IMG/VR virus record: IMGVR_UViG_3300033463_000001
Coordinates: 211,298 to 275,297 of that record
DNA: 64,000 nt
Strand: one strand, 5' to 3'
DNA from: a virus
Taxonomy: Duplodnaviria > Heunggongvirae > Uroviricota > Caudoviricetes
Part shown: positions 11,945 to 44,484 of the stretch, piece after piece
Layout: each line of letters begins with the position of its first letter
Numbering within the stretch: the stretch's first letter is position 1
Notes under the pieces: model-generated
What the model saw: the letters and a program-made list of their open reading frames with translations, nothing else
Database searches by the model: none
Told to the model about the DNA's origin: nothing
Program-made: the position numbers and the translations under genes

Positions 11945-11979
11945 TTTTTAGTTTAAAGCTGCTTGCAAGGCATATTGTA

Positions 11980-12512: not shown

Positions 12513-12638
12513 CAGTGGCAACTGGTGGTCCAGCGAGCAGTACAATAACGAACAAGCTTGGTACATCAACAATGGTAGTCTGAACAACAACAACAAGACT
12601 AACACGAACAACGTTGCGGTGCCGTTTTACGAGCTTTA
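12513..12638 (+). repeat. DGR template region TR1
   Basis: Non-coding copy of VR1, rich in AAC (Asn) codons in the VR frame. It ends 3 nt before the RT start codon. Confidence 0.85.
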
Positions 12639-12641
12639 TTC

Positions 12642-14376: not shown

Positions 14377-14390
14377 CTGACTGGATTTGG

Positions 14391-14424
14391 GCGAGAACAC
14401 GATGCGTTGTTCTCGCTTTCTTTG
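14391..14424. terminator. Rho-independent terminator
   Basis: GCGAGAACA-cgatgcg-TGTTCTCGC hairpin followed by TTTCTTTG. Confidence 0.6.
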
Positions 14425-14455
14425 TCTATGTCCGTGGACAAACGCAGCAATTTGA

Positions 14456-14464
14456 TATTTATTG
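14456..14464 (+). promoter_or_regulatory. TATTTATTG motif (copy 2)
   Basis: GATATTTATTGTTAG, 19 nt upstream of ATG 14483. Confidence 0.4.
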
Positions 14465-14482
14465 TTAGATGTAGATACAATT

Positions 14483-15277
14483 ATGACAATAACAGAGTTA
14501 TTTAGAAAAGCAATCATGAGTCTCTCCGGGATTTCTCAAGTCCTCAAAGAGCTCTATAACTGGTCACACGAGAGTGTTGCCACAAAGGAGTCTGTTCAAC
14601 AGGAGCTTACCAACAAGGCCACCAAGCAGAATGTGACGGATGCACAATCCGCTATTATTGGTGCAATCAACAGCAAACCTGTTACACCGGCTACTGACCT
14701 AACACCGGTTACACAGGTCTTGGGTAGCTATAACTCCAGCAAAGGTACTATTCAAGACCAAATCGGCAATATTGTATTCGATAAGAATGGACTCGCTACT
14801 GATGCGCAGGCTAATGAAATTATCGGAGATGTCAGTGGGCTACCTGGTGAGTTGAATGCCGTTTTGGAAAGTGTTTCTGGTATTACCGGATATGCTTACC
14901 AAGGAAGTGGGTCTTCAGAGGATGTTAATCTCACAGTAGTAGACAATAAGATTGGTGACGTACAGGAGGTAATCGACACAATTAACGGCGGAACGATGGA
15001 TATTAATATTCCATCGGATTACGTTCGCGACACAACGGTTACAAGTGCCAAAACTGAGATTCTTAGCGCTATTACTGCTGTTAGTGGCTCGGTTGGTGTT
15101 GACAATAGCGGCGTGACTGTACACGAAAAAGTTGATACAATAGAAGCAATGGTGCGATACCTGTTCAATGGGTGTAGCATTGTAGAGAATAGTGACGATG
15201 TCGGAACAGGAAATCAAGGATATACAGTAATACTTGACCAGACAGCATCGATTAACGACGGAATACTTACATTATAA
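14483..15277 (+). CDS. fibre-like module protein, paralog family (copy 2 of 3)
   Basis: ORF track begins at TTG 14462; first ATG is 14483 (MTITELFRK). Strong identity to 9915..10631 over FDKNGLATDAQANEIIGDVSGLPGEL...VHEKVD. Confidence 0.6.
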   Translation: MTITELFRKAIMSLSGISQVLKELYNWSHESVATKESVQQELTNKATKQNVTDAQSAIIGAINSKPVTPATDLTPVTQVLGSYNSSKGTIQDQIGNIVFDKNGLATDAQANEIIGDVSGLPGELNAVLESVSGITGYAYQGSGSSEDVNLTVVDNKIGDVQEVIDTINGGTMDINIPSDYVRDTTVTSAKTEILSAITAVSGSVGVDNSGVTVHEKVDTIEAMVRYLFNGCSIVENSDDVGTGNQGYTVILDQTASINDGILTL

Positions 15278-15278
15278 C

Positions 15279-16841: not shown

Positions 16842-16987
16842 ATTTAGGTTCGCAAGTTACAGCATTGGGTCATTGCAGACACAATGCGCTATATAATACA
16901 TAAGTGAACATTGACATATACAGCAAGAGGTTAAATTCTCGACGCAATGTAAGCCAGCATGCTGATACTTACGGGTTAGGCAGCGCG

Positions 16988-17059
16988 CATTAATCATAGG
17001 TGGCCTACCACTTTCCCCCTGCTTGCAGGATAAGTTATATCGATAGAGTAGGCGTATAA
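16988..17059 (+). other. conserved TR leader element (copy for orphan TR3)
   Basis: AGGTGGCCTACCACTTTCCCCCTGCTTGCAGG...AGTTATATCGATAGAG, homologous to the leader 5' of TR1. Confidence 0.5.
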
Positions 17060-17189
17060 CGGCAACGCCGGTAACACCTGGTCGTCCTCACAGTATAATG
17101 CTAACAACGCGTGGTACTTGAATACGTCTGGGGCGTTGAACAACAACAACAAGAACAACAGTTACTCGGCGGTGGCCGTGTTCGAGCTA
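17060..17189 (+). repeat. DGR template region TR3 (orphan: no adjacent avd or RT)
   Basis: Intergenic, AAC-rich (aacaacaacaacaagaacaac) copy of VR3. Confidence 0.8.
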
Positions 17190-17192
17190 GGA

Positions 17193-17204
17193 ATGAAATG
17201 CTAA
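17193..17204 (+). pseudogene. vestigial RT start (ATG AAA TGC TAA) at the position where RT genes begin after TR1 and TR2
   Basis: In modules 1 and 3 an RT ATG lies 3-5 nt after the TR end. Here an ATG at the same offset is followed by a stop after 3 codons. Confidence 0.4.
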
Positions 17205-17301
17205 TAGCAGATTTAATTACATTGGCGTGCCGGAGACGGCTCGTTTAGGAAGGTCGAGAATACCTCTTTGCTGTATTTATTGTAAGACAAAAACATGTTA
17301 T

Positions 17302-17868
17302 ATGGAATATATAATTGAGAGATATGCGTCGGACGATTTCCGTACGTCAGAAAAGATTGGAAATAGGTACATCATACGCACAAAAATTGAAGACTTGCCG
17401 GAAAGTGAGTCTGTTCGCTGCGTCGAAAGTATCATTGACCATAGTCCGGCACAAGCAGATTATGATGCACAGGTAGCAAGCTACATAGGAGATGTGCAAC
17501 AGGAGAAACTGTCATGCATACGGCGCTATGATGTGTCGGATAACGTCAATATCTTCTACATTGATGAGCACGCAACATGGCTTGACAAAGATACTCGCGT
17601 CGGTCTGGACAACCTCATTAAGAAACAAAAGGAGGCCGGTGCTACAGAAACGACCTTGTGGTTAGCTGGTGTCAGCTTTGTTATCGAGATTGACCATGCA
17701 ATAGACCTTCTCAGACAACTTGAGATTTACGCAGGTCAATGCTACAACAAGACAGAGGAACATAAGGCAGCAGTTCTTGCAACTACAACAATAGCTGGCG
17801 TTGAGAACTACGACTACACAACAGGTTATCCGGAGCCACTGCACTTTACGATTAGTAATAATGAATAA
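17302..17868 (+). CDS. DGR-module-associated ~188 aa protein, paralog (copy 2 of 3)
   Basis: ORF track starts at 17227. Paralog alignment and ATG 17302 (MEYIIERYASDDF) give 188 aa. Conserved NIFYIDEHATWLDKDTRVGLDNL...LEIYAGQCYN...TTGYPEPLHF. Confidence 0.55.
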   Translation: MEYIIERYASDDFRTSEKIGNRYIIRTKIEDLPESESVRCVESIIDHSPAQADYDAQVASYIGDVQQEKLSCIRRYDVSDNVNIFYIDEHATWLDKDTRVGLDNLIKKQKEAGATETTLWLAGVSFVIEIDHAIDLLRQLEIYAGQCYNKTEEHKAAVLATTTIAGVENYDYTTGYPEPLHFTISNNE

Positions 17869-17870
17869 CC

Positions 17871-18548
17871 ATGCCAGAGTCTATTAGCCAATTGTTTAAC
17901 AAGACCATACTCAGTCTAACAGGGATATCTACATTCCTGAGTAATATCTACGCCTGGCTTACAAGCAACGTTGCTACGAAGAGTGACGTTTCTACAGCCA
18001 CGCAGAATGGTGCTACAAAGACAGACCTTAGCACATCAACCAATACCATTGTAACTGCTATCACGAATAAGCCAGTGACACAGATTGGACCTATAATGGA
18101 TGTGCTGGGTGACTTCAATGCAGGTAATGGTACAATACAAGACCAGATTGCAGACCTTGGAACTGCTGTTGGGCAGATTGAGTTTGATAAGACCGGGTTG
18201 GCAACAGAGAGTGGAACAACGAGCGCCGTTACGGCAGCGGCCGGGAGTGTTATCAATGCGCTACCAAAAGACTACGCACAGAGAGGGGAGAATAGTGGTG
18301 CAACTAATAGTGCAATTCTAAACGCTTTGAGCGATGATAGTGGAAATACTGTTGTTGATATTCTTACCGACGAAACAAGTGGCCTATCAGCCATAAGTAA
18401 TGCAGTTTCAGGACTGCCTGAAGTAATGAAAAATATGTATGCGGCACACTTTGAACAAAACGAAGATGGTGAGGATACGTATACAATGGTAATGCCGTTA
18501 ACAGCCATAGTTAGTGAAACCGGCGAAGCAATCACAATAAACATTTAA
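17871..18548 (+). CDS. fibre-like module protein, paralog family (copy 3 of 3, diverged)
   Basis: 225 aa; retains the IQDQI...FDKTGLATE block and the same position in the module. Confidence 0.5.
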   Translation: MPESISQLFNKTILSLTGISTFLSNIYAWLTSNVATKSDVSTATQNGATKTDLSTSTNTIVTAITNKPVTQIGPIMDVLGDFNAGNGTIQDQIADLGTAVGQIEFDKTGLATESGTTSAVTAAAGSVINALPKDYAQRGENSGATNSAILNALSDDSGNTVVDILTDETSGLSAISNAVSGLPEVMKNMYAAHFEQNEDGEDTYTMVMPLTAIVSETGEAITINI

Positions 18549-18556
18549 TACAATAT

Positions 18557-20128
18557 ATGTCAACACCTACAAAAATAGCTACTAGATTAAAATCAGCAAT
18601 AACCGGTGAAGAGTTCTTTATTGGAACTGTTGGTACTCAAGAAAAGGTTTCTGTATTATTGTCTGCACCTTCCAGTGTGGATTGGACACAATATTCCGTA
18701 GTAGTACAAAATATATCACAAACTGGTTCCCAGACTCTCAATTTAACATCTGAGGCATCTGGTGCAACAACCGTCGGTGTATGTGCTTTCAATATGCCAA
18801 TGGGCGTTATATACGAAGTGCAATTACCGACAATTACGGGATACGTATCTCCAATTAACCAGCGATTCTCAGCAACATCAGCAATGAGACAACTTATTCA
18901 TGAATACACAGCTGAAGGTGAGAAATTCGAACAAGTAACAATACTTGCATCCTTTGCATCTGCAGGAGGTACTGTTGCGTTATTGGAAAATATGACTGTT
19001 ACAGCGCTGTGCACCGATGGAACATCTTATTCAGGTATGTTTAATGCTAGTGGAATGTGTACTATTACCAATATCCCATATGGTAAAACATACACAATTC
19101 AATACCCGGATGTAATTAGTAGTGACGGGTCTATTCCATTTCATCATGACCGCAATAATGAACAGTTTACCGCCGGAGAACCATCAAGGATGCTTAATGT
19201 TACCTATTATGAGGGTATCATTGGTATTCATGGTGTTGACAGGTACGGAAACCTATTAAGTCTAGAAGAAATTGAATCTGGCATCACAAACGGAACGATA
19301 GTTGCTTCCGACATTATAGCAGGATATTACAATGATTCAAGGCTATCTCAGTCAACACGTGGTGATGGTTCAGGTATAGGTAATGCTGTTGTATGGAGTG
19401 TGTGGGATAATAAAATGCAAGGTTCCTGGATGAACCCGAATGGAAGCACTGTTAATGGCGTACCATTGAATAGCTCAGAAGGATATCACCTTGATAAATC
19501 GCGCTGTGCTGGAAAATATTATACGTTGCTAATCTCAGACTACGCAACAAGTAATAGCTATGCTTCAATCATTAAAGACTGTACCGCGCGAACTATAAGA
19601 GCACAAAAACTTTATGCTGTATATAACGATATTGTATATCGCCAAGTAGAATATAGTGACAATCAATGGAAATCTGTAACAGAGACCCCTGTTATTGTTT
19701 ATACTCATGATTCTATTACAAACCTTAACGGTGTAACAGGCGTGACTTTCTATAGCACTGCGCAAGGCGCAACTGATGAAGATAGTAGCGATATCGCATT
19801 TACTGCTGATGTTTTGAACTCTGCCGCAACAAAGAATGGTTTTACGGGTTCATACGCACAGATGAAAGGAATGGCAGACAACTGGGCTAATAACACAACC
19901 AATCCAGGTGCTTATACGGCGTACAGACTCTACAAAGCTTTAGGCATTGAGACTAAGATTACATCTGCTTCCAGCAACGCGACGTCTCACAACATCCGTA
20001 ACGGCTACTGGTGGACGTCTTGTCAGGCCAGTTCGACTTATGGAGTCTTACTGCTTAGTGGCTCCTTCGACATCGGCAACAAGTACTACGGTAGCTCTGT
20101 GTTGGTTTTGTTCGACCCTTTTGAATAA
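18557..20128 (+). CDS. DGR target protein 2 with C-terminal variable region
   Basis: 523 aa. C-terminus ...GYWWTSCQASSTYGVLLLSGSFDIGNKYYGSSVLVLFDPFE corresponds to TR2 (GNWWTSCQNSSTNGVKLNSGSFNNNNKNNSNSVLVLFEP). Confidence 0.8.
   Translation: MSTPTKIATRLKSAITGEEFFIGTVGTQEKVSVLLSAPSSVDWTQYSVVVQNISQTGSQTLNLTSEASGATTVGVCAFNMPMGVIYEVQLPTITGYVSPINQRFSATSAMRQLIHEYTAEGEKFEQVTILASFASAGGTVALLENMTVTALCTDGTSYSGMFNASGMCTITNIPYGKTYTIQYPDVISSDGSIPFHHDRNNEQFTAGEPSRMLNVTYYEGIIGIHGVDRYGNLLSLEEIESGITNGTIVASDIIAGYYNDSRLSQSTRGDGSGIGNAVVWSVWDNKMQGSWMNPNGSTVNGVPLNSSEGYHLDKSRCAGKYYTLLISDYATSNSYASIIKDCTARTIRAQKLYAVYNDIVYRQVEYSDNQWKSVTETPVIVYTHDSITNLNGVTGVTFYSTAQGATDEDSSDIAFTADVLNSAATKNGFTGSYAQMKGMADNWANNTTNPGAYTAYRLYKALGIETKITSASSNATSHNIRNGYWWTSCQASSTYGVLLLSGSFDIGNKYYGSSVLVLFDPFE
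20003..20119 (+). repeat. DGR variable region VR2
   Basis: 117 nt versus 20652-20768. About 20 mismatches, all at TR adenines, plus a terminal G/C. Confidence 0.85.
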
Positions 20129-20169
20129 TTAAAAGCGCTAGGACATTCCTGTCCAGCGCATAAACAGCA

Positions 20170-20583
20170 ATGGGAAAAATTGTAGATAAATACACAGACG
20201 GTAGGGAGATACCTCTATATAAAGCAACGGAAACATTGCTTTATGACGTTGATAATTTGATTAATTTTTTACAGAAAGATAGGAAGCATACTCTTGGACA
20301 ACACATGCTTCTCCTTGTTTTGGATATGCTGGATTGCGTGGCGGTAGCATACGATTTTCCAGAAAGAAAAGTTGAACAATTAAAGTTGTATATTTCGAAG
20401 TATAACAACTTGGCAACAATTCTTAAAATGTGTGAAATAAAGGGTTATCTAATGAACAATAATAAGAACTATTATGTTGAGATGATTAAACCTTTAGGAA
20501 ACGCATATAAACAAGCTAAAGGTTGGTTAGTATCCGCAAACAAAGAAGCCGGAGTCTGTATGGATAATACAGAGAGCGCGTAA
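20170..20583 (+). CDS. avd: accessory variability determinant-like protein
   Basis: 137 aa helical ORF between target 2 and TR2. The segment KDRKHTLGQHMLLLVLDML resembles the PRKHG region of known Avd proteins. Confidence 0.55.
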   Translation: MGKIVDKYTDGREIPLYKATETLLYDVDNLINFLQKDRKHTLGQHMLLLVLDMLDCVAVAYDFPERKVEQLKLYISKYNNLATILKMCEIKGYLMNNNKNYYVEMIKPLGNAYKQAKGWLVSANKEAGVCMDNTESA

Positions 20584-20587
20584 AATT

Positions 20588-20651
20588 TAGGGTGGCTATC
20601 TACTTTCTCCAGAAATGGGAAGTTAAGAATAAGATAATGATAGCGACATAC
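20588..20651 (+). other. conserved TR leader element (copy 3)
   Basis: AGGGTGGCTATCTACTTTCTCCAGAAATGGGAAGTTAAGAATAAGATAATGATAG; same architecture as the TR1 and TR3 leaders. Confidence 0.45.
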
Positions 20652-20768
20652 GGCAACTGGTGGACGTCTTGTCAGAACAGTTCGACTAATGGAGTCAAAC
20701 TGAATAGTGGCTCCTTCAACAACAACAACAAGAACAACAGTAACTCTGTGTTGGTTTTGTTCGAGCCT
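20652..20768 (+). repeat. DGR template region TR2
   Basis: AAC-rich copy of VR2 ending 4 nt before the RT2 ATG. The ORF-track 'protein' 20592..20780 is just its translation. Confidence 0.85.
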
Positions 20769-20772
20769 AAAT

Positions 20773-21996
20773 ATGAGTGAGTGGTGTACAATAGAAGAAG
20801 TATATGCTGCCTATCTTGACTGTAAAAAGCACAAAACAAGGTCTAGTTCATACGCAGAATTTGCTGCTAACGAAGCAATAAATTTGTATGAATTATGGCT
20901 TGATTTGAATAATCATACCTATAAAATTGGTTTAAGTGACGCATTTTGTGTTACACGGCCAAAAGTTAGGGAAGTATTCGCTGCTAGGTTTCGCGACCGT
21001 ATAGTTCACCATTTGGTGATTATGCGATTGTTGCCTATATTTGAACAACATTTTATTGAAGATACGTATAATTGCCGAAAAGGGAAGGGTACGGATTACG
21101 GAATTAATCGTGTATTGAATTTTACTAAAAACCACCCAAATGGTTGGATATTAAAGTATGATATAAGTTGTTTTTTCATGAGTATTAACAAAACTTTGTT
21201 AAACTCAATGCTGAAAACATTTATTTGCGATAATTATAGTAGGGATGACAAAGACGAGATTTTATCTTTGGTAGAAATGATTGTCATGCATCGCCCTGAA
21301 TTGCTTTGTATAAGGAAAGGTGATTTAAGCTTATGGAATCAATTACAAAAAGGAAAATCTTTATTTCGCAGCGACGGAAATCACGGCCTTGCAATTGGCA
21401 ACCTTACAAGCCAGATATTTGCGAATTTCTACATGTCGCAAATAGATAAATGGCTAGCAAGTATTGATGGTGTAGAATATGGAAGGTATGTTGATGATGC
21501 AATTTTAGTATCTGACGATAAAAATTTATTACTATCTATACTCCCCAAACTGCGTGAGCGATTAAGCGTTGAGCTTGATTTAGAACTACATAAAAAGAAA
21601 ATATACATACAACCAGTCAGGCATGGCGTTTCGTTTTTAGGGAGCGTAATTAAGAATGGGCGTTTATATGCAGGAAATCATACAGTTACAAATGCATTTA
21701 ATATAACGAAAGAGTTTGCGTGTAGGTTAGATAAGGAGAGTTGCGTTGAAAAATTTGCACAGCGATACAATTCTTATATGGGATATCTAATACATCGTAA
21801 AACATACGCAATCCGATGGAATCTATGGAATAATGTAGATGAAGAAACAAAAAAGTTTGTATACTTAACAAAACGCATGGGTTTAATGCGTGTAAGGGAT
21901 GTGTACAAAGAGAAAACTAAGCTAAAAAGTCAATATAAACATGATAAAAGAAACATTAGCAATAAACGACTGGGAGGAGTTGTCAAAGGCTTTTAA
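20773..21996 (+). CDS. DGR-type reverse transcriptase 2
   Basis: Start moved to ATG 20773 (MSEWCTIEEV), downstream of TR2. Motifs IGNLTSQIFANFYM and YGRYVDDAILV. About 50% identical to RT1 by eye. Confidence 0.9.
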   Translation: MSEWCTIEEVYAAYLDCKKHKTRSSSYAEFAANEAINLYELWLDLNNHTYKIGLSDAFCVTRPKVREVFAARFRDRIVHHLVIMRLLPIFEQHFIEDTYNCRKGKGTDYGINRVLNFTKNHPNGWILKYDISCFFMSINKTLLNSMLKTFICDNYSRDDKDEILSLVEMIVMHRPELLCIRKGDLSLWNQLQKGKSLFRSDGNHGLAIGNLTSQIFANFYMSQIDKWLASIDGVEYGRYVDDAILVSDDKNLLLSILPKLRERLSVELDLELHKKKIYIQPVRHGVSFLGSVIKNGRLYAGNHTVTNAFNITKEFACRLDKESCVEKFAQRYNSYMGYLIHRKTYAIRWNLWNNVDEETKKFVYLTKRMGLMRVRDVYKEKTKLKSQYKHDKRNISNKRLGGVVKGF

Positions 21997-22621: not shown

Positions 22622-23008
22622 TTAGTACACAACCTCTTCGCAGTTGTATCCCTGTTTCCTAATCCAGTCAGCAACGAGATGCCTATGACAGAAGTCGCCT
22701 GGTTTCTCGTAGCACAAGAGCGTTAATTCATCAAGCGCTACGCCATCGGAACCGTAGAATTCATTCAAATCGAACAGGACGTTGAGTATATCCAATTTCG
22801 ATAACACCTCATTGTTAAACCTGCGTGTATACAGTTCCGTGTCTCCTTTTTCAACTCCACCATTTTTGTAAGCATTCAAGATGCTATATGTCGGTGCTAG
22901 CTTCTTATATTCAGGTTTTCCTAGTGCTGTGTACCACACAGGTGCTTTCGCTGCGATAGAGACGGGATATTTGATTTGTTTTAACTTTGCAAAATAACTG
23001 GTTTTCAT
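22622..23008 (-). CDS. DUF488-family protein
   Basis: 128 aa with the conserved ...EKPGDFCHRHLVADWI... block typical of DUF488. Last gene of the NAD operon. Confidence 0.5.
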   Translation of the reverse strand: MKTSYFAKLKQIKYPVSIAAKAPVWYTALGKPEYKKLAPTYSILNAYKNGGVEKGDTELYTRRFNNEVLSKLDILNVLFDLNEFYGSDGVALDELTLLCYEKPGDFCHRHLVADWIRKQGYNCEEVVY

Positions 23009-23754
23009 AGTCCATAGAGTTTATGTTCATGCATGTACCTGAGCGACTCCTTGTAGTTTGGCAACCACTGTTGTAAATTTTTCTTATTTACATCAAACTG
23101 TATGCTTGCGTTAGGAATGCTTCCGATACATCTCCTCAGTTCTGTTGACGATATCTCCTGGATGTTGATATTCTCAGCGTAGATGCAGTTGTCATTCAGC
23201 AAGCGCCTATCAACCTCGTATCCTTTGCGTGGGATGATGATTATCTTAACAATGCCGGAGTTCAATAACCAGTTGTAGTCCTTGAACTTTTCTATACTAT
23301 TAAAGCTATCAACACCCATCACAAAGTAATACTGGTTCTCATTGAAGACGTTCTCACAGACGATGCGCTTCAATGTATCAACAGTATATGCACATTGCGC
23401 GGTGCCGAAGTGAACAATCTCGTAAGGACTTATAACAATTTTATCCTTGAACCAGTCACGAATGAACTGAGGGTACTCCGGATTTAATGTCATTTGTTTT
23501 AGTGCAATGTCACACAACTTGCACCGGTGGTATGCATCAACAGTTTCTGAGTTACCTGTCTTGAACGGACTACACGGAGAAGGGAGGACATAAACCTTTT
23601 GCACAAGGACAGGATTCTCACGTTGCCCATCCCCAAGCAATGCCATTACCGTCTGTACGTGCCCAGCATGGATAGGATTGAATGAACCACCGTATATGGC
23701 GATTTTCGTACACCTATCCACACCTGGATGCATTAAGCCGTCAACTTCCAACAT
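23005..23754 (-). CDS. nadD: nicotinate/nicotinamide-mononucleotide adenylyltransferase
   Basis: GGSFNPIHAGH (HxGH nucleotidyltransferase motif), ...SPYEI..., FVMGVDSF and ISSTELR blocks match the NadD pattern. Confidence 0.8.
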   Translation of the reverse strand: MLEVDGLMHPGVDRCTKIAIYGGSFNPIHAGHVQTVMALLGDGQRENPVLVQKVYVLPSPCSPFKTGNSETVDAYHRCKLCDIALKQMTLNPEYPQFIRDWFKDKIVISPYEIVHFGTAQCAYTVDTLKRIVCENVFNENQYYFVMGVDSFNSIEKFKDYNWLLNSGIVKIIIIPRKGYEVDRRLLNDNCIYAENINIQEISSTELRRCIGSIPNASIQFDVNKKNLQQWLPNYKESLRYMHEHKLYGL

Positions 23755-23756: not shown

Positions 23757-24287
23757 TTAGTCAATATGTAGTTGGCGTGCCATGAACGGAACATGTTTGT
23801 AGAACATCTCCGGAATCAACTCTTCGTGGCCGAAAGCCCAGTCGTATGAATCTCTATCACCGAACGGAACCCATTTAATGCCTGCAATCTCGTCCACCTC
23901 AGAGTTCGTGTCGTTGAAGGTGAAATCACTTGTTACCTTATCGTTGATAACGGTTACATAACGCAGTGTGACATTCTGGTCTTTCTTCTTACTGAAGGAT
24001 ATCGAGTCAAATACCATCTGTTCTGGCTTCAACCCAACGCCTGTCTCCTCGAAGATTTCGCGAACAACTGCCTCGTTGCCATTCTCATCGAAGTCCAGGA
24101 ATCCGCACGGTGCGTTCCACTTGAAGTTCTCATCGGGACAACCGGCACCACGCTGATTAGCAAGCACGCACCATGTACCATCTTTGTCACGACAGAAAAC
24201 GAATCCTACAACTGCTACTGAACGACTACGCCAGTATGTCTGCCCGTCCACTTCGAACGGGAAATTTTTCATTATTCTCTCACCCAT
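23757..24287 (-). CDS. Nudix hydrolase (candidate ADP-ribose/NAD(H) pyrophosphatase)
   Basis: Perfect Nudix box GFLDFDENGNEAVVREIFEETGV (Gx5Ex7REUxEExGU). Confidence 0.8.
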   Translation of the reverse strand: MGERIMKNFPFEVDGQTYWRSRSVAVVGFVFCRDKDGTWCVLANQRGAGCPDENFKWNAPCGFLDFDENGNEAVVREIFEETGVGLKPEQMVFDSISFSKKKDQNVTLRYVTVINDKVTSDFTFNDTNSEVDEIAGIKWVPFGDRDSYDWAFGHEELIPEMFYKHVPFMARQLHID

Positions 24288-24288: not shown

Positions 24289-25446
24289 CTATTGCTTAAT
24301 ATCTAATTCTTTCATCGCAACCTCCAACTCCTCAGGAAGACCCATCATCTTTCCCTTATCGTCGGAAATCTTCACACAATAGTTCCACTTCCAACCTCTG
24401 AACTGGCAGCGATTTAACTTCATAACGATGTTCATAGGCTTGTAACCGGTATCGTTTGTTAAATTTGTTCCGATGCCGGCGCTACACATGATTTTTCCAC
24501 TGCAGTACTCAGCAATCTCCTTGTACTTTGGGAAATCCAGCGCATTCGAGAAAACAATCGTCTTCGTTGTCGGGTCAATGCCATAGCTCTTGTAGAAGGC
24601 AACAACCTTATCAACGAATTCATACTCGTCACCGCTATCCTGGCGCACACCGTCGAACAGCTTTGCCTGCTTCAGCGTGAAGTTATTCAGGAAAGCATCC
24701 AATCCCCACGTATCGGTCAGTGCGATGCCAAGGTCACCGTCATAGGTGCGTACCCAGTTCTCGTATGCCTCGAAGTTGGCGTTGCGATAGCCGTACAGTG
24801 CACCGTGCATCATTATCCATTCGTGAGCAACAGTACCGATTGGCTTCATATCATATTTCCATGCCAGATGTACATTTGATGTACCAACACAATAGGCTGC
24901 GTAGTCTTTCAAGTACTCAACCACCATATCCTGTACCTCGTAACTGAAGCGACGGCGTGTTCCAAACTCAGAGAAGAGGAGGTTGTTGGTATTGGAGAGC
25001 ATAACCTTTGCCTCCAGGCGGCTCATCACTTCTTGCTTGTCAAGCTTGTTGTGATGGTTGCATGCCTCAGAAACGATTGCGAGGATGGGAACTTCGTACA
25101 GCGTGGCCTTGTACATGAGGTCTGTAACGGAGATATGAAGATGGCGCTGCTCGTCAACCCACAGGTCGATTTTATCTGACTCGAAACGGAATCCGGATAG
25201 CCACTCCCAGTAGAAAGCAGGGATGTACGGCATTTTCTCGATTGCCCATTCCTTCATATCCGGGGACATGGAAACCTTTTCCAGGTCGAACATCGCCATT
25301 TTAATGCGTGCAACCGTAGCGGCGTCGTACTCAGTATTATTGCGGTCGTTAAACACAAACTCACCCACCACATTAGGGAAGAGTTTCATATAAGCGTAGC
25401 CCATGCTAAACTTATACAAGTCATTATCAAGAAGGCTTTGAATCAT
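24289..25446 (-). CDS. pncB: nicotinate phosphoribosyltransferase family enzyme (PncB-like; NadV/Namat-like not excluded)
   Basis: N-terminal LLDNDLYKFSMGYAY (compare PncB LLDTDAYKLHM) and FGTRRR motif. Start moved to the MIQSLL Met (ORF track 25554 gives an N-extension). Confidence 0.75.
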   Translation of the reverse strand: MIQSLLDNDLYKFSMGYAYMKLFPNVVGEFVFNDRNNTEYDAATVARIKMAMFDLEKVSMSPDMKEWAIEKMPYIPAFYWEWLSGFRFESDKIDLWVDEQRHLHISVTDLMYKATLYEVPILAIVSEACNHHNKLDKQEVMSRLEAKVMLSNTNNLLFSEFGTRRRFSYEVQDMVVEYLKDYAAYCVGTSNVHLAWKYDMKPIGTVAHEWIMMHGALYGYRNANFEAYENWVRTYDGDLGIALTDTWGLDAFLNNFTLKQAKLFDGVRQDSGDEYEFVDKVVAFYKSYGIDPTTKTIVFSNALDFPKYKEIAEYCSGKIMCSAGIGTNLTNDTGYKPMNIVMKLNRCQFRGWKWNYCVKISDDKGKMMGLPEELEVAMKELDIKQ

Positions 25447-25711
25447 GTAAATAAAGTTGTTTAAAGTTTTCGTTATATTCTGCAATCTCCTTTTCGAGAC
25501 GTGCAATGCGTTCATCGCTGTATCCGGATATATCGTATACCTGACGGTCACCAATCACTTCGTCAACTGGCATGTAGAGCACTTTAACGGTATCATCAAA
25601 CTCAGAAGATATATGCTTGATGACATGTTCTACAAACTCAGGAACGTCGCCACGGTTAACGCCACCGATGTAAATCTGGATAACGATAATGCGTTTTTCT
25701 TTATCAGTCAT
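25427..25711 (-). CDS. hypothetical protein (94 aa)
   Basis: Compact ORF coupled to neighbours inside the operon; acidic C-terminus; no motif recognised. Confidence 0.45.
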   Translation of the reverse strand: MTDKEKRIIVIQIYIGGVNRGDVPEFVEHVIKHISSEFDDTVKVLYMPVDEVIGDRQVYDISGYSDERIARLEKEIAEYNENFKQLYLHDSKPS

Positions 25712-26540
25712 CGTTACAAATGATTAATGAATCAACAAAGGCACGGCCAGCACCGGTAAGGATAGGCATTTCAGTATCTACATACCATTGCGTGCGGACA
25801 GTCTCCTCACCGTGCTGGTTAGTAAACGATACACCCCTCTTGATGCATGCAGAACCACGCTTCTGCGGAATTGGTAGGTCATTCCAGTTAATACCTTTCT
25901 CCGTGAAGAGCTTATCTTGCAGCTTATTGCAGTTCAAGCCGAACATCTCCTTGTGTGAGAAATGTGCCTGTGCCAATGCCTGAATAGAGTTGCGTGTTGC
26001 ATCTTGCTGGCGCCAGAGGATATTATTGGTTACATCCTCTTTCGGAACATTGAACGCGCGACAGTCGAAGATGGCACCATCCAGTGTTACACGGTCATAT
26101 GCGTTATATACCTTGCGGAAATTATCCGTAGTAACGGTCAGGTCAACCACTTCTTTGGAACAGATGGCCATATTTGCTACGAAGTACGAGTTAAAGGCCT
26201 TGGTTGCCATGGATGCAGCAACGGAGCACATTTTCTGTACTTCATTATCGAACCATGCAGATGAGTTGAGTTTCTTGTAGTCTACAAGGATAAGCGTTAT
26301 CTCATCCGACTGTGTATAGCCGAATACACAACCTTGTATATGCTCACAGAGATACTTCATGGTATCCTGCATGGTTTTCATCATGACCGGGTCAAACGGT
26401 TTGATAAAGCCACGGGTTGTCGTGTGGAAGTGACACCCGTCGAGACGCAGAATAACCGGCATACGAGGAACAAGAGACGTCTTGCTGACCGCCTCGTACT
26501 TCTTCATTCTATCGCCGAGTGAATCGTTTTTGTTTGCCAT
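25704..26540 (-). CDS. tRNA-His guanylyltransferase (Thg1)-like 3'-5' nucleotidyltransferase
   Basis: VILRLDGCHFH...KPFD...GYTQSDEITLIL and ...LWRQQD... align with Thg1 family signatures (RLDGRNFH, AYGQSDE, SWRQAD). Confidence 0.75.
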   Translation of the reverse strand: MANKNDSLGDRMKKYEAVSKTSLVPRMPVILRLDGCHFHTTTRGFIKPFDPVMMKTMQDTMKYLCEHIQGCVFGYTQSDEITLILVDYKKLNSSAWFDNEVQKMCSVAASMATKAFNSYFVANMAICSKEVVDLTVTTDNFRKVYNAYDRVTLDGAIFDCRAFNVPKEDVTNNILWRQQDATRNSIQALAQAHFSHKEMFGLNCNKLQDKLFTEKGINWNDLPIPQKRGSACIKRGVSFTNQHGEETVRTQWYVDTEMPILTGAGRAFVDSLIICNDD

Positions 26541-26566
26541 AGTTGTAATAGTTTTTCAAATTCGCC

Positions 26567-26617
26567 CACAAAGATATGTAAAATTTTTGATATATACAAA
26601 TCCTGTGGACGAATTTT
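26567..26617 (-). promoter_or_regulatory. Bacteroidota-type promoter (TTTG-N20-TATCTTTG) within a 50 nt conserved repeat, copy 1 of 3
   Basis: Minus-strand read: AAAATTCGTCCACAGGATTTG-tatatatcaaaaattttaca-TATCTTTG, 22 nt before the Thg1 start. Near-identical copies at 44485-44535 and 51899-51949. Confidence 0.6.
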
Positions 26618-26619: not shown

Positions 26620-27198
26620 TTACTCTGCAGCAGCTGCGGCGCGTTTTGCCTTCTTTTCGGCAATCTTCGCCAGCTGTGCTGCCTTACGTTCTGCGCGCTC
26701 TTTCTCTTTTGCTTCGCGACGAGTTTTGAGGTAGGCTTGTTTCTTCTCGCGCTTTTCTGCACGAGCCTTCTCGTCGGCTTCCTCCTGTTTTTTCTTCTGC
26801 TCCTCTGCTTTCTCAATTCGCTCTTTGCGCTTTGCAGCGAAGTCCTTGAAGTTCTGAATTTGCTCGTCAACAATCTCACGCAGGAAGACCTTGCCTTCAT
26901 CCGTTCCGTTGAGGAATGTAATGAATCCGCGTACTGCAGAACTGAGCGTGCTGGTCTTGTTCTCACATGCAGCAACCTCTTGTTCGAGAGAGCTCTTGGA
27001 ATTCATAATTCGTTCAACAAGAAGAGAAACTTCTTTGCGGAAACTGTAGGTAAGCGTCATCTTGGTATAGTAATGACTATACTCTTCCGGCGTCATTCCG
27101 TTGTGTTCTTTCTTGAAACGCTCCAGCGCCTCTTGGGATAACTGTTGAACATCGTCCAACGTCTCCATGGTGTTACCGTTTACACTTTTAATTGCCAT
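26620..27198 (-). CDS. hypothetical protein with Lys/Glu/Ala-rich coiled-coil tail
   Basis: 192 aa; C-terminal 70 aa low-complexity KEKRAE repeats. Confidence 0.5.
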   Translation of the reverse strand: MAIKSVNGNTMETLDDVQQLSQEALERFKKEHNGMTPEEYSHYYTKMTLTYSFRKEVSLLVERIMNSKSSLEQEVAACENKTSTLSSAVRGFITFLNGTDEGKVFLREIVDEQIQNFKDFAAKRKERIEKAEEQKKKQEEADEKARAEKREKKQAYLKTRREAKEKERAERKAAQLAKIAEKKAKRAAAAAE

Positions 27199-27211: not shown

Positions 27212-27400
27212 TTAATCGTCAATTACCTGCCAATCCTCGCGGTTAACGAACTTGTCAAACCACGGGCTGTTATCAATGGTACCTTCTTTTGTGCGTACGT
27301 AGAACAGATTATCATCGCCTACGAACCACCAGCCTTCCCACTCTGGGAGCTTAATCTTTTTGCCACTATATGCTGCGGCCAGCGCTAATCTAAAGTTCAT
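27212..27400 (-). CDS. small hypothetical protein (62 aa)
   Basis: Compact ORF between the coiled-coil gene and prs on the same strand. Confidence 0.4.
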   Translation of the reverse strand: MNFRLALAAAYSGKKIKLPEWEGWWFVGDDNLFYVRTKEGTIDNSPWFDKFVNREDWQVIDD

Positions 27401-27412: not shown

Positions 27413-28309
27413 TTATACATTTGCGATTACATGTACCTTCGGATTCTTACCTGTGTAGATGCTATCCGTTGTGTAGATACCGGACAGTTCACCAACCAAC
27501 AGAGCGTCGAGAAGTTTTGTGTTCTCTGGGTGTGCATCTTTGTCTATGTAGCTGTTCTCAAGGTGTGTGCAGTATGCGAAGATATTCTTGAAACCACACT
27601 CACGCAGTTCCGATGCGCTCAGCACAACTGTTTCTCCCGTAGAGATAATATCATCGATGATGAGAGCTACCTTGTTTGCGAAGTACTCCGGCGTTGTGAT
27701 ACCTTCTGTGCCACGATGCTGGTGTAACCCGAACTCAACAATCTCCCTGGTATCGAAGTTTCGCAGTTTCTTACCGTAGAATACCGTAGATGCCAACTCA
27801 GTATCATTTGCGATATCCTTGTAGCGCTCCATGGCACCCATATCCGGGAAACAGAGTACGACGTCTCGATTGATGTAGGTCTTAATACCTTCAATTACCT
27901 TGCGGATGTATGTGTCAGGCGACATGACCTGAACGTTGTTAATCAACTCGCATGCCTTTGCAGAGTGAGGGTCAAGGAAATAAACCTTGGTGAAATGTAG
28001 TGAGTTAATGACATCAGCGAAATGCTTCAGTGTAAATACCTGCTTCTCATCCTCAACACGGTCGAGTCGTGCGTTCGGCATGTACGGCACTGTAAGCGTG
28101 ATTTGCGGGCAGCGCTTATCCATGTTTTTAAACGTGTCACGGATGTGTTTAACGAGATAGATGATTGTGATTAGTTCACCTTCGTTTTCGTACGTCCAGT
28201 GAATATCCTGAACACCATGGTAGCGCACTGCAACGTTGAACATCTTCAGTGTTCCGTCGGCAAAGTGTTCGTTGCCGACAACTAATTCTCCATTATAAAG
28301 TGTTATCAT
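27413..28309 (-). CDS. prs: ribose-phosphate pyrophosphokinase family enzyme (PRPP synthetase or ADPR-PP synthetase-like)
   Basis: VPYMPNARLDR (compare IPYFGYARQDR), FLDPHS (DLH), VALIIDDIISTGETV (PRPP-binding loop), NIFAYCTHL. Divergent from housekeeping Prs. Confidence 0.75.
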   Translation of the reverse strand: MITLYNGELVVGNEHFADGTLKMFNVAVRYHGVQDIHWTYENEGELITIIYLVKHIRDTFKNMDKRCPQITLTVPYMPNARLDRVEDEKQVFTLKHFADVINSLHFTKVYFLDPHSAKACELINNVQVMSPDTYIRKVIEGIKTYINRDVVLCFPDMGAMERYKDIANDTELASTVFYGKKLRNFDTREIVEFGLHQHRGTEGITTPEYFANKVALIIDDIISTGETVVLSASELRECGFKNIFAYCTHLENSYIDKDAHPENTKLLDALLVGELSGIYTTDSIYTGKNPKVHVIANV

Positions 28310-29061
28310 ACTGTTTGTGTTGTGTACATTGTGTTAGGTTGTAACGAATTTGGTTCGCTTACAGGCTCTTTGTATTTCTCTGCCTTTTTGAAGTCTTCGT
28401 TGAACTCGATGTAAGCTGCTTTCCATTTGTCGAACTCTTCTTGAGTGATAGGGTAGATAGCGTACTTGTCAGCCATGTACATGAATCCTGCCTCGCCGGC
28501 CATGCACTTATCGTCACCTTCTTTCAACGGGTGTCCGATGAAGATGTGGCCAAGGTGTGCTTCGTGGAAGCTTGCAATACAATTAATTTCCTCATCCGGA
28601 CGGAACGAACGTGTGAATACAAATCTGTTTACAGTTCCGGCGTATTGTTTATTGAGTCCGAATGCAACCAAGTAAGCCTCGTTTTCTTCTTTGTATGCGT
28701 GGCCACCAATCTTGACGAGCTTCTTCGCATCTTCGTTTCCGATGATATATTCAACGAAATATTCAGCCTCTACCGTAGAAACAGTAGCCGTTGGAATGTC
28801 GATACCGTTCACCTCAGTGATTGTTTCAATCTTGAGTTTATAGATATCGTTTTCTACATCGTGCTCCACTTCAAGAACCTTATCGAACAAGCGCATGCAC
28901 GCGCCGTTTTGGAACTTGTTGGTGTGGAATACCGTACCAGGCACAACTGCCTCACAGAATTTCTGAACGAGCTTACCCTGCTTGTAGAGTGCAATTAACT
29001 CACGTGCCATGAATATCAACATGATAACAATGGCTACAATAAAGACAATCTTTACAGTCAT
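28306..29061 (-). CDS. hypothetical membrane-anchored protein
   Basis: 251 aa; N-terminal hydrophobic helix (IVFIVAIVIMLIFMA); start overlaps the pncA stop. Confidence 0.5.
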   Translation of the reverse strand: MTVKIVFIVAIVIMLIFMARELIALYKQGKLVQKFCEAVVPGTVFHTNKFQNGACMRLFDKVLEVEHDVENDIYKLKIETITEVNGIDIPTATVSTVEAEYFVEYIIGNEDAKKLVKIGGHAYKEENEAYLVAFGLNKQYAGTVNRFVFTRSFRPDEEINCIASFHEAHLGHIFIGHPLKEGDDKCMAGEAGFMYMADKYAIYPITQEEFDKWKAAYIEFNEDFKKAEKYKEPVSEPNSLQPNTMYTTQTV

Positions 29062-29657
29062 ACAGCATCTGATTTAATGACTTTAATCTGGCAACTTTTC
29101 ATCACGTCCAGCGCCTCTGCGTGTTTCTCCGGTGTTGTTCCAGCACTCAGGTCTTCAATGACACGAATAACAGCGTCAGGATAGGTTGCGCGCAGGATAA
29201 GTGCATTGCTTACAACACAAATATCGGTACATACACCCATTATATCAATCACGTATCCTTCTCCGGCGAAATCATCATTGTTTTTCCTGATAGGGATAAT
29301 GTCGAGCAGGTCATACATCCAGTGTATGTTGCCGAAGGTGTTTTTCTCAATACGACGGCATGACAGTTCGCTGAACTTATCTGCTACCTCGTTAATCTGA
29401 TGATTTAACGCATGACCCCACGAACCCTTGATGCAGTGCTCAACCGGCAGGTTTATACCTTCCAACGTCTCAAGATAGTTTTTCTCGTGCGTATCGAGAG
29501 TGAAAACGGTCATCTCGTAGTCCTTGTGTGTGCGTTCCAGGAAATCAGCCATCTTCTCTACAATGGCAACCGTATCCTTATTTGCGAGTGTTCCGGTCTG
29601 TGAACAGAAGTCGTTTTGCATGTCAACGACAACCAGTAAATGTTTTGATTTAGACAT
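29058..29657 (-). CDS. pncA: nicotinamidase (isochorismatase family)
   Basis: LLVVVDMQNDFC, DTH, PVEHCIKGSWGHAL, IEK, MGVCTDICV match the PncA catalytic Asp/Lys/Cys and metal-binding positions. Confidence 0.8.
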   Translation of the reverse strand: MSKSKHLLVVVDMQNDFCSQTGTLANKDTVAIVEKMADFLERTHKDYEMTVFTLDTHEKNYLETLEGINLPVEHCIKGSWGHALNHQINEVADKFSELSCRRIEKNTFGNIHWMYDLLDIIPIRKNNDDFAGEGYVIDIMGVCTDICVVSNALILRATYPDAVIRVIEDLSAGTTPEKHAEALDVMKSCQIKVIKSDAV

Positions 29658-29669: not shown

Positions 29670-30542
29670 TTATCCGATGTTATACGAAGGAGCCAGTTCT
29701 GGTACCAATGAATCATTTACAGAGAAAAGGTAACGACCGTCACATAAAGTCGGCGTATCCTCTGTTTCAAATACAGTGTTATCCATGTCATACAAGAGTC
29801 CGGGAGCCGGTTGGAACATTGGAACAGGCATCAGCTTGAACAGGTTCTTGTTGTGACGATTGGTGATATTTTCAAGGTCTGTCTGCGATGCGCATTCGCC
29901 TGTACGGATATACTTATCAAGTGTTGCGTAGGTAAAACCGAACTTCTCTTCATCCGTAGCGCCAACGAGTCCATCAGCTGGAGCTTTCTCGATAAAGCGC
30001 TTATCAAGGCCGAGTTCATAGCCGATTTCCTTCACCTCACTTGCTGTTAGGAGTGCGAACGGCATTACGTCACCAACGGAGTCTCCCCAACGGGTCATCC
30101 ATCCAACCCAATCCTCAGAGTAGTTACTGGTGTTCACAACGCGGCCATTGCAAGACTGAGCCACTGCATATAGTACAGACATACGCAATCTCGGAGGCAA
30201 GTTCCACTTTGTCTGGTCAGTGATAGAGATGCCTGCGTCATCAATTCCTGCGAGGATGGCGTCGTATGCGCAACGTATATTAACCGTTACGTTCTGTATT
30301 CCAAGCGTTTTACACAGGTCTTGCGATACGTTAATGTCAGATTGTACACCATTCGGAATGAGAACACCGAGAACATTCTCCTTACCGATAGCAGCACAGC
30401 ACAACGCGGCCATGATACTTGAATCCTTGCCACCAGAGATACCGATGACGAGTTTACAACCTTTTGCGTTGGCCTCGTACCATGTAATCAGGAACCTCTT
30501 GAGTGATTCACATGTTTCTTTTCGATTGAAATTATAATTCAT
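29670..30542 (-). CDS. nadE: NH3-dependent NAD+ synthetase
   Basis: PP-loop VIGISGGKDSS plus LIPNGVQ, TVNI and C-terminal KAP.DGL...DE..FGFTY blocks align with NadE. Confidence 0.85.
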   Translation of the reverse strand: MNYNFNRKETCESLKRFLITWYEANAKGCKLVIGISGGKDSSIMAALCCAAIGKENVLGVLIPNGVQSDINVSQDLCKTLGIQNVTVNIRCAYDAILAGIDDAGISITDQTKWNLPPRLRMSVLYAVAQSCNGRVVNTSNYSEDWVGWMTRWGDSVGDVMPFALLTASEVKEIGYELGLDKRFIEKAPADGLVGATDEEKFGFTYATLDKYIRTGECASQTDLENITNRHNKNLFKLMPVPMFQPAPGLLYDMDNTVFETEDTPTLCDGRYLFSVNDSLVPELAPSYNIG

Positions 30543-30585
30543 ACAACGTGTATTTTCTTAAACTCAATACTAATATAGTCCTTTT

Positions 30586-31243: not shown

Positions 31244-32752
31244 TTACTTACCCTGTTGTCCCAGGTCAACACTTGCCGTTGCAACAGTAGAGTTGTCTTG
31301 CATGATTCGACTCAGGTCAACGCCGGTAGCTTCTTTAACGACGTCCATGGTCTGTTTCATCAGCACTGGGACGTTCCCAGAAAGTCCGGAAACCTCATTA
31401 CCGGTTGTTCCATAGACACGTACATCACCAATCTGACTCAGCGGGCTTGCAACCTTCTCGGCAACCTCAGGAAGAACGTGTACCATCATCTCTGCAAGTG
31501 CTGCAGGACCGTATTTCTTGAATGCCTCAGCCTTCTTGTCCATTGCGGCTGCTTCTGCCTCACCTTTAGCCTTGATGGCTGCGGCTTCTGCCTTACCGAC
31601 AGCCTCGATACCGGCTGCTTTCTGTTGTTGAGCGAAGAGGTCTGCCTCTGCCTTTGCCTTGATGGCGCGTGCTTGTTGCTCTGCCTCGTATGCTTCGGCC
31701 TCGGCTTTACGCTTGCGTTGCTCCAGTTCAGCTGCTGCGGCTTGCTCTTTCTGATACTTCTCAGCATCGGCTTGCTTGTTAACCTTTGCAGCGAGGGTCT
31801 TCTCCTGGATGGCAATCTCTTGCTCTTTGAGCTGTTGCTGTTGTTTTGCCTTCTCAACCTCTGCCTCAACGGCCTTGCGGTTAATAAGGAGTTGCTGCTC
31901 CTGAATACGAATCTCCTTTGCGGTAGAAGCCTCAACCGTCTTGACGTTAATGTCCTTTGCTTGCTCTTGTTTCTGAATCTCATAAGCTGCGTCAGCGATA
32001 GCCTTTTGTTTATCGGCCTTGCTTTTCAACTCAGACTGTTTGATGGACAGTTCAGTGTTCTTCTCGGCAATCTGCGTCTCTGCCTCAACGCGTGCATCGT
32101 TAGCCTCTTTCTGTGCAAGTGCTTTTGCAATAGCAACGTCGCGCTCTGCGTTAGCCTTGTTGATGGATGCATCTTTTGTAATCCTGCATGTGTTGTCAGC
32201 ACCGAGGGCGTAGATGAGACCGTCGTTGTCCTTAATGGTTTGAATGTTGCAAGAGATAATCTTGATACCCAGTTCTGTCATGTCCGGAGCTGCCTTTGCC
32301 TGAATCTGGTTAGAGAATCCGTCACGGTCAGTGTTCAACGAGCGTAGGTCTTGCGTACCGATAATCTCACGCATGTTACCTTGCAAGGAGTCACGAATTT
32401 CCTCTGCGATTTCCTCACGCGACTTATTAAGGAAGTTTGCAGCGGCAATGTCAATACAGTCACGGTCAATACTTACTTTGGCAACTGCGTCGACGTCAAC
32501 ATTGATAAAGTCGGATGTCGGAACGGGTGTACCTGTTTTGATGTCAACAGACAATTGTCCGAGATAGAGGGTATCAACACGATGCAATCCAGGGATACGG
32601 AATCCACCGGTACCAGTTAAATACCTCGGCTTTTTCAACGGCCAACCAGATACAACCAACGCTTTGTTTGGTCCAACTTTCACATAGCAGACTGCGAAGA
32701 ATAGCATCGCCAGTCCAAGCACTACAAGTGCAATAATTAATCCAGTACTCAT
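31244..32752 (-). CDS. flotillin-like SPFH/band-7 membrane protein
   Basis: 502 aa. N-terminal TM helix, SPFH-like core, then a >150 aa Ala/Glu/Lys/Gln coiled coil (EAEVEKAKQQQQLKEQE...), the classic flotillin (FloT/YqiK) architecture. Confidence 0.7.
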   Translation of the reverse strand: MSTGLIIALVVLGLAMLFFAVCYVKVGPNKALVVSGWPLKKPRYLTGTGGFRIPGLHRVDTLYLGQLSVDIKTGTPVPTSDFINVDVDAVAKVSIDRDCIDIAAANFLNKSREEIAEEIRDSLQGNMREIIGTQDLRSLNTDRDGFSNQIQAKAAPDMTELGIKIISCNIQTIKDNDGLIYALGADNTCRITKDASINKANAERDVAIAKALAQKEANDARVEAETQIAEKNTELSIKQSELKSKADKQKAIADAAYEIQKQEQAKDINVKTVEASTAKEIRIQEQQLLINRKAVEAEVEKAKQQQQLKEQEIAIQEKTLAAKVNKQADAEKYQKEQAAAAELEQRKRKAEAEAYEAEQQARAIKAKAEADLFAQQQKAAGIEAVGKAEAAAIKAKGEAEAAAMDKKAEAFKKYGPAALAEMMVHVLPEVAEKVASPLSQIGDVRVYGTTGNEVSGLSGNVPVLMKQTMDVVKEATGVDLSRIMQDNSTVATASVDLGQQGK

Positions 32753-32837
32753 AATTTAATTTAGTGTGTTTTGTGAATTTCGTATCTAATATAGTCCGGA
32801 TAATCCGATTCTTGTAACGAATACTTGATTATTTTAG

Positions 32838-44460: not shown

Positions 44461-44484
44461 AATACATAGTTCGTTAAAATCCGA

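Follow-up and report, generated by a model that had tools for sequence, protein, structure and literature searches.

What a phage gains from a gene for a Thg1-like protein (TLP) set among genes of nicotinamide adenine dinucleotide (NAD+) salvage is the question raised by a 64,000-nucleotide stretch of the genome of a large gut phage of the Caudoviricetes (IMG/VR record IMGVR_UViG_3300033463_000001, positions 211,298 to 275,297; this whole stretch is called the window), in which an open reading frame (ORF) of 278 amino acids with an ATG start occupies positions 25704-26540 on the minus strand. By analogy with the TLP of Bacillus thuringiensis (BtTLP), its product would probably carry out the templated 3'-5' repair of 5'-truncated transfer RNAs (tRNAs) and would be co-expressed with PncB, Nudix and NadD. 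A role in tRNA-end repair is supported by the comparative context of phage TLP genes, which lie near tRNA arrays, Pnkp-type kinase-phosphatase-ligases, RlaP, CCA-adding enzymes and PTH2. The phage TLP gene is of a kind already known and annotated, and the comparative picture of its neighbourhoods is modestly new.

A preliminary description of this locus had assigned the ORF to the Thg1 family from the motifs RLDGxHFH, GYTQSDE and WRQQD and had held that a lack of the catalytic carboxylates would speak against the assignment; both motifs and carboxylates are present. The translation contains RLDGCHFH (residues 32-39), GYTQSDE (74-80) and WRQQD (176-180), and profile searches returned Pfam PF04446 (Thg1; 102.9 bits, with the gathering cut-off set at 29.2 bits, E 1.6e-29, profile positions 2-130 of 130 covered) and PHROG 4717, 'tRNA-His guanylyltransferase' (E 1.6e-85). 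The best solved relative is BtTLP (PDB 4kgk/4kgm; E 2.3e-65), to which the protein aligns in two blocks, residues 6-119 without internal gaps and 156-276 with small gaps only, with about half of the aligned residues identical, while the matches to eukaryotic Thg1 are far weaker (human, 1.6e-5; yeast, 2.7e-7; Candida, 8e-4). The carboxylates D30, D75 and E76 of BtTLP are conserved and equivalent to D29, D76 and E77 of human THG1 (hTHG1), and its E12, R28, R131 and R147 bind the activating and incoming nucleoside triphosphates (PMC3701042). The phage residues D34, D79 and E80 align with the former and E16, R32, R161 and R177 with the latter, and K47 and S78 stand at the aligned positions of the activation-step lysine and serine. 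Across 44 non-redundant phage and metagenome homologs, no substitution occurs at D34, D79, E80, R32, R161 or R177, and conservation of E16 reaches at least 90%. The phage segment NNILWRQQDATRNS resembles NYFIWRQQDASKNS of BtTLP, with WRQQDATRNS replacing the eukaryotic HINNLYN, and the protein is accordingly placed, on sequence grounds, with the TLP clade and not with eukaryotic Thg1.

An AlphaFold2 model built from the 44-homolog alignment (mean predicted local distance difference test score, pLDDT, 83.5; predicted template-modelling score, pTM, 0.83) predicts the polymerase-like palm plus fingers of the Thg1/TLP fold; all 32 Foldseek matches in the PDB at E<=0.001 are Thg1/TLP structures, BtTLP being the top match, with template-modelling scores normalised to the target of up to 0.83. 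The carboxylates, the aligned nucleotide-binding residues, the signature WRQQDA(T/S)(R/K)NS and the predicted fold are thus common to the phage protein and BtTLP (4KGK/4KGM; PMC3701042, PMC3061083), and the ORF is assigned as a bona fide TLP with a predicted intact active site. When compared with the copy on a Joint Genome Institute (JGI) sister contig (L001; 98% identical), the gene differs by 29 synonymous and 5 non-synonymous codons and is therefore under purifying selection.

The phage protein departs from BtTLP at residues ~120-155, where ~36 residues, predicted to be helical with a pLDDT >90, stand in for ~10 BtTLP residues after the last palm helix and ahead of the FD(C/A)R strand. Across the phage homologs this insertion is hypervariable in length and sequence, and in the phage/metagenome TLP clade it is 20-45 residues longer than in BtTLP. 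It could be a determinant of substrate range or have an anti-inhibitor function.

Homologs of the gene were found in 164 of 50,697 deposited phage genomes, all of them belonging to the same family (PHROG 4717) and less than 60% identical to the window protein, and a metagenomic protein search returned at least 8000 relatives. The deposited carriers include phages of Bacillus (BCP78, Bc431v3 and G), Caulobacter and Mycobacterium, the Prevotella Lak megaphages, Pseudomonas phage 201phi2-1 and Fusobacterium phage Fnu1, and Thg1 carriers are large phages of 50-490 kb; a survey of jumbo phages lists Thg1 as a sporadic RNA-repair gene (PMC7824862). No NAD cassette surrounds Thg1 in the deposited contexts inspected (Fnu1 and PMBT8), and a contig scan for TLPs, which returned only seven gut and rumen contigs of metagenome-assembled genomes, gave no bacterial chromosomal TLP context.

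The genomic company of phage TLPs was explored in 48 IMG/VR loci (L003-L050) extending 10 kb to either side of Thg1 homologs of 31-66% identity, in which neighbours were clustered without prior assumptions and cluster representatives annotated by Pfam; the closest 80 of 547 phage PncB loci, found with an alignment query where a single-protein query gave none, served as a control. These locus samples are redundant and uncorrected for phylogeny, such that the p-values are indicative only. Genes for tRNAs occur within 10 kb in 22 of the 48 Thg1 loci (46%) and in five of the 80 PncB-anchored loci (Fisher p = 2e-7), with 15 of the 22 tRNA-bearing loci holding same-strand arrays of 2-12 tRNA genes. 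RNA-repair enzymes, comprising trifunctional kinase-metallophosphatase-RNA-ligases (Pnkp-like), the RlaP nucleotidyltransferase, the CCA-adding enzyme and kinase-HD (PNK-HD) proteins, accompany Thg1 in 16 of 48 loci compared to 7 of 80 PncB-anchored loci (Fisher p = 7e-4). Transfer-messenger RNA (tmRNA) genes lie near Thg1 in two loci, L039 and L040.

The same arrays could mean that the TLP services the phage's own tRNAs in maturation or quality control, for example after imprecise 5' processing, which would be the same biochemistry put to another purpose. The placement of 46% of the phage Thg1 loci within or next to same-strand arrays of up to 12 tRNA genes fits such a role, as does the size of the carriers, the window phage itself probably measuring ~327 kb. 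The 91 tRNAs encoded beside phage Thg1 genes, however, have normal acceptor stems apart from four with a mismatch at acceptor pairs 1-3, so that nothing in the encoded sequences calls for 5' editing. Several Thg1 loci lie away from any tRNA gene, the 64-kb window contains none, and servicing of the phage's own tRNAs appears unlikely. The 5' editing of encoded acceptor-stem mismatches, as in amoebal mitochondria, was rejected on the same count of 4 mismatched tRNAs in 91.

These neighbouring tRNA genes also bear on the standard database annotation, tRNA-His guanylyltransferase, under which most of the deposited homologs are labelled and according to which the enzyme would place G-1 opposite C73 on a phage or host tRNA-His that lacks G-1. 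In favour of the annotation, BtTLP is capable of templated G-1 addition in vitro and gives weak complementation of yeast thg1 (PMC3061083). No tRNA-His occurs among the 91 tRNA genes, however, which leaves this reading weak, and the phage protein belongs with the TLPs (2e-65 to BtTLP, ~1e-5 to the human and yeast enzymes) with WRQQDATRNS and not HINNLYN. Bacteria, moreover, normally encode G-1 and retain it through RNase P processing, and a true tRNA-His guanylyltransferase is considered improbable.

NAD synthesis genes were found in 10 of the 48 Thg1 loci (21%). Direct adjacency occurs in at least five gene orders (the window; L005/L007/L013/L140; L038; L040; L043), the NAD-linked cases being scattered over a neighbour-joining tree of Thg1 sequences, and an abundant gut phage of ~170 kb has the order PncA-Prs-NadV-NADAR-NadE-x-Thg1-x-PTH2. 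Viewed from the other side, only two of the 80 PncB-anchored loci contain Thg1, both as fragments at the extreme edge. Of 80 loci anchored on CCA-adding enzymes, 13 contain Thg1 (an enrichment, p = 0.005), usually together with RlaP, 35 contain RlaP, 21 tRNA genes and 15 NAD genes, and NAD genes are no more frequent near Thg1 than near CCA-adding enzymes (21% vs 19%; p = 0.82). A Thg1-specific NAD link was rejected on these two controls. As CCA-anchored loci are equally rich in NAD genes and PncB cassettes are nearly devoid of Thg1, the link is a property of tRNA-repair neighbourhoods: Thg1 is part of a phage tRNA-end repair toolkit, which as a whole tends to adjoin NAD and ADP-ribose genes, whereas the NAD pathway itself does not depend on Thg1, and the NAD neighbourhood is recurring but non-specific. 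The position of Thg1 inside an NAD operon, to which the preliminary description had attached meaning, is therefore real but marks no specific functional coupling.

A direct tie of the TLP to NAD+ would explain the repeated juxtaposition of Thg1 and NAD salvage in different gene orders. Under such a tie NAD+ could act as the adenylyl donor, as in NAD-dependent ligases, or the enzyme could rebuild RNA 5' ends, either once ADP-ribosyl or NAD-cap modifications had been removed or where NAD-consuming host effectors had ADP-ribosylated or otherwise damaged them, possibly on a substrate other than tRNA. Besides the adjacency in at least five gene orders, spread widely over the Thg1 tree, bacterial Tpt1/KptA-Thg1 operons and the ADP-ribosylation of RNA 5'-phosphate by Tpt1 (PMC8120803) are compatible with this proposal, as is the recurrence of SLOG-Macro and NADAR genes near Thg1. 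Nevertheless, NAD genes are as common beside CCA-adding enzymes (15 of 80 vs 10 of 48), the closest 80 PncB cassettes are nearly without Thg1, and E16, R32, D34, D79, E80, R161 and R177 are identical to the residues of BtTLP, which uses ATP or GTP; with controls that reveal no specificity and an active site of the ATP/GTP type, a direct tie to NAD+ is highly improbable. Among the NadV-type cassettes linked to Thg1, NADAR is fused to NadE or encoded just before it (L013 8156-9337; L140 6533-7707), and YspA-SLOG+Macro fusion proteins occur near Thg1 in 4-6 loci.

In the window, all of the genes from 33.3 kb to 22.6 kb are tightly packed on the minus strand, in the order Band7/flotillin, two unknown ORFs, NadE, PncA-like, orf251, Prs-like, orf62, orf192, Thg1, orf94, PncB, Nudix, NadD-like and DUF488-N3a (Table 1). 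The NAD operon described earlier is thereby confirmed, with NadE, PncA-like, Prs-like, PncB, Nudix and NadD-like genes on the same strand as Thg1. PncB reaches 393.5 bits with the NCBIfam model TIGR01514 (cut-off 269.55), although its start is ambiguous (371 or 385 aa by other callers), and carries NAPRTase_N and not NAMPT_N, making it a PncB-type nicotinate phosphoribosyltransferase; the nicotinamide phosphoribosyltransferase (NadV/Nampt) that is the hallmark of NARP2 was accordingly not found at this place in the window. The cassette is of the Preiss-Handler NAD+ salvage type and plausibly serves as a counter to NAD-depleting immunity. Two further IMG/VR phages (L119 and L120) have a contiguous NadE-PncA-Prs-PncB-Nudix-x-NadD in the same order without Thg1 and, judged by that layout, Thg1, orf94, orf192, orf62 and orf251 appear as extras inserted into a conserved cassette. 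A Nudix gene is found alongside PncB in 65 of the 80 PncB-anchored loci.

The ATG of orf94 and the stop of Thg1 overlap by 8 nt (ATGACTGA), and orf94 is therefore probably translationally coupled to Thg1. It has no Pfam, PHROG or NCBIfam match and, among 5.8 billion proteins, only an identical cluster; as an ORFan with no relationship to the 94-aa ORF located after Thg1 in L142, it was rejected as a conserved TLP partner. At the far end of the unit, the DUF488-N3a gene overlaps the NadD stop by 4 nt and has no homolog in any other locus examined. A megablast search of the 9-kb operon against deposited phages gave no match and hence no close cultured relative, while the same operon, with a 100%-identical orf94, is present on a 327,292-bp contig (L144; JGI 3300028797, Ga0265301_10000011), from which the window phage is probably a jumbo phage of ~327 kb with one fifth of its genome in view.

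The preliminary description had also reported three conserved promoters of ~50 nt, one of them directly before Thg1 and taken to be its own. The three elements are recovered as a 64-nt direct repeat whose copies have 73-80% identity (Table 1). Read on the minus strand, each copy contains TTTG-N20-TA(T/C)CTTTG, and in copy 1, which is nearly identical in L001, the core TTTG-N20-TATCTTTG spans 26569-26600, its end lying 29 nt ahead of the Thg1 ATG. The wider pattern TTTG-N18-22-TAnnTTTG has five matches in the window, three of which are the repeat copies, with 1.9 expected by chance. The copies have the flanks AAAATTCGTCCAAAGGATTTG...AAAATTTTAC in common and would therefore form a phage-specific promoter class. 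The core fits TTTG / TAnnTTTG with a spacing of 19-21 nt, which we take to be the consensus of promoters of the Bacteroides primary sigma factor, and so suggests that the host is probably a member of the Bacteroidota; a sigma-70 scan performed no better than on shuffled sequences.

The 64-nt element is missing from the upstream regions of Thg1 in six other phages. It is accordingly assigned to the resident phage's own promoter class and not to a mobile Thg1 cassette, and the view of Thg1 as a 'moron' with its own promoter was rejected. No terminator-like site was detected between the genes of the Thg1-to-DUF488 unit, the intrinsic-terminator scan being no better than shuffles, and the promoter-like element would thus drive Thg1-orf94-PncB-Nudix-NadD-DUF488 and not Thg1 alone. 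Two other short repeats, of 34 nt and 31 nt and with 71-74% identity, have copies at 30548-30581 just before the NadE start, at 32764-32816 just before the Band7 start and at 51982-52012 in the divergent region near 52.0 kb, and could represent a second regulatory element.

On the analogy with BtTLP, the enzyme would use ATP or GTP to activate the 5'-monophosphate on a 5'-truncated tRNA and then add the missing nucleotides singly, with the 3' strand of the acceptor stem as the template, so as to restore a chargeable tRNA. Thg1 would be the first cistron of a unit under the phage's own repeated promoter and, because it heads this shared unit, tRNA 5'-end repair and NAD re-synthesis would be switched on together. 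We infer that tRNA is the substrate, and likewise the timing and the purpose, a functional tRNA pool during infection, with use against host tRNA-damaging immunity as a possible further role. In these terms the earlier proposal of a repair of nuclease-damaged tRNAs is supported as to tRNA-end repair, to which the comparative context points, and its counter-defence part is no more than possible.

Several observations weigh against templated 5'-end repair as the function of the phage TLP. To our knowledge, no nuclease, immune or other, yields 5'-truncated tRNAs, and those described in bacterial immunity that attack the acceptor stem or tail cleave the 3' strand (PMC12916289, PMC12851939). The searched literature gave no activity data for, and no experimental study of, any phage TLP. 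The 64-kb window contains no tRNA gene, and the 30 minus-strand genes scanned from 22.6 to 51.5 kb yielded no RNA ligase, polynucleotide kinase, CCA-adding enzyme, Pnkp or RlaP. The hypervariable insertion, absent from BtTLP, could change the choice of substrate, and the locus samples behind the context support carry the redundancy and the missing phylogenetic correction described above. The company of phage TLPs, together with the purifying selection and the promoter-like element seen here, nonetheless points to the repair of acceptor-stem 5' ends as something that truly takes place in infected cells. By implication, tRNA 5' ends would be damaged by a host process, perhaps an immune nuclease that has so far escaped notice. 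Phage TLP neighbourhoods, about one in five of which adjoin NAD salvage, offer a testable handle on the role of prokaryotic TLPs, for which the substrates in the cell have yet to be settled (PMC6471195).

Among known systems, BtTLP is the biochemical model, with templated 3'-5' addition to 5'-truncated tRNAs; the window protein differs in its insertion and in being phage-encoded, and its activity is ascribed by analogy. Phage tRNA-repair toolkits (T4 Pnk + Rnl1 against PrrC; modules of Pnkp, RlaP and CCA-adding enzymes) likewise restore damaged tRNA with phage-encoded enzymes, but mend 3' ends or breaks in the anticodon loop. A TLP would instead rebuild the 5' strand of the acceptor stem and, unlike the multi-gene modules, the window TLP has no such partner among the 30 genes scanned. 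The window cassette would rebuild NAD+ as do NARP1, NARP2 and NARP3 (PMC13464706) and the Preiss-Handler sets of 'NAD-jumbo phages' (PMC11662467), though with PncA-PncB-NadD-NadE plus Prs and Nudix in place of the Adps/Namat, Nampt/Nmnat or PnuC/NadR of NARP1/2/3; text searches of both papers found no mention of Thg1 or guanylyltransferase.

Table 1. Positions in the window of features other than the Thg1 gene itself
Feature	Position	Strand	Remark
D34 codon, Thg1	26439-26441	minus	catalytic carboxylate
D79 codon, Thg1	26304-26306	minus	catalytic carboxylate
E80 codon, Thg1	26301-26303	minus	catalytic carboxylate
64-nt repeat, copy 1	26554-26617	minus	14 nt upstream of Thg1, in 79-nt gap
64-nt repeat, copy 2	44472-44535	minus	
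64-nt repeat, copy 3	51886-51949	minus	heads leftward small-gene block; divergent gap before plus-strand genes starting 52093
NadE	29670-30542	minus	
Isochorismatase/PncA-like	29058-29657	minus	
orf251	28306-29061	minus	
Prs-like phosphoribosyl-diphosphokinase	27413-28309	minus	
orf62	27212-27400	minus	
orf192	26620-27198	minus	
orf94	25427-25711	minus	ORFan
PncB (nicotinate phosphoribosyltransferase)	24289-25404	minus	TIGR01514
Nudix hydrolase	23757-24287	minus	
NadD-like nicotinate-nucleotide adenylyltransferase	23005-23754	minus	match below NCBIfam cut-offs
DUF488-N3a ('active DUF488-N3 subclade')	22622-23008	minus	last gene in unit
DGR variable repeat	11818-11943	plus	
DGR variable repeat	16709-16843	plus	
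DGR variable repeat	20001-20119	plus	
DGR template repeat	12513-12638	plus	
DGR template repeat	17060-17194	plus	
DGR template repeat	20650-20768	plus	
Reverse transcriptase	12642-13877	plus	phrog_1423, 1e-79
Reverse transcriptase	20707-21996	plus	phrog_1423, 9e-76
Genes marked by 43-nt repeat (examples)	40251-40658, 41182-41598, 42396-42806, 45754-46236	minus	one shared homolog in L119/L120
DUF551 protein	38803-39294		
DUF551 protein	44545-44988		

Two further neighbours recur near Thg1. A Band7/flotillin/prohibitin-family protein (window 31244-32752, minus strand; L003 10790-12313; L014 3948-5516; Fnu1, L138 8389-9198) is directly adjacent to Thg1 in L003, whose copy shares 79% identity with that of the window. 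In Fnu1 it stands two genes from Thg1, and in L014 and the window the distance is 4-6 kb; the recurrence may be due to chance. A T4 gp30.3-like protein (Phage_30_3, 1.7e-59) followed by an ORF of ~215 aa (window 50179-50742, minus strand; L016 ~8690; L142 6779-7225) stands directly upstream of Thg1 in two megaphages of 380-490 kb and 24 kb away from it in the window. Thg1 appears to have relocated between related phages.

Elsewhere in the window, a family of 43-nt repeats with six copies between 34790 and 58451 marks paralogous small minus-strand genes. Large plus-strand ORFs in 106-9878 and 52093-61375 (789, 720, 300, 1444 and 381 aa; the test left out the 1664- and 656-aa ORFs) have no PHROG match at E<=1e-4, and the presumed structural genes scanned would thus seem highly divergent from catalogued phage proteins. 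Three repeat pairs of diversity-generating retroelements (DGRs) lie at 10640-21996 on the plus strand, with the variable repeats at the 3' ends of ORFs, and A is the template base at 33 of the 38 mismatched positions (6/7, 11/14 and 16/17 in the three pairs). In L001, an IS605-type TnpB (OrfB_IS605/Cas12f1-like_TNB) and a Y1 transposase occur at 19369-20837 beside the DGR region, with no counterpart seen at the matching place in the window. By coordinate arithmetic, the end of contig L144 maps near ~11.7 kb of the window, beside a DGR repeat, and the break may stem from that repeat.

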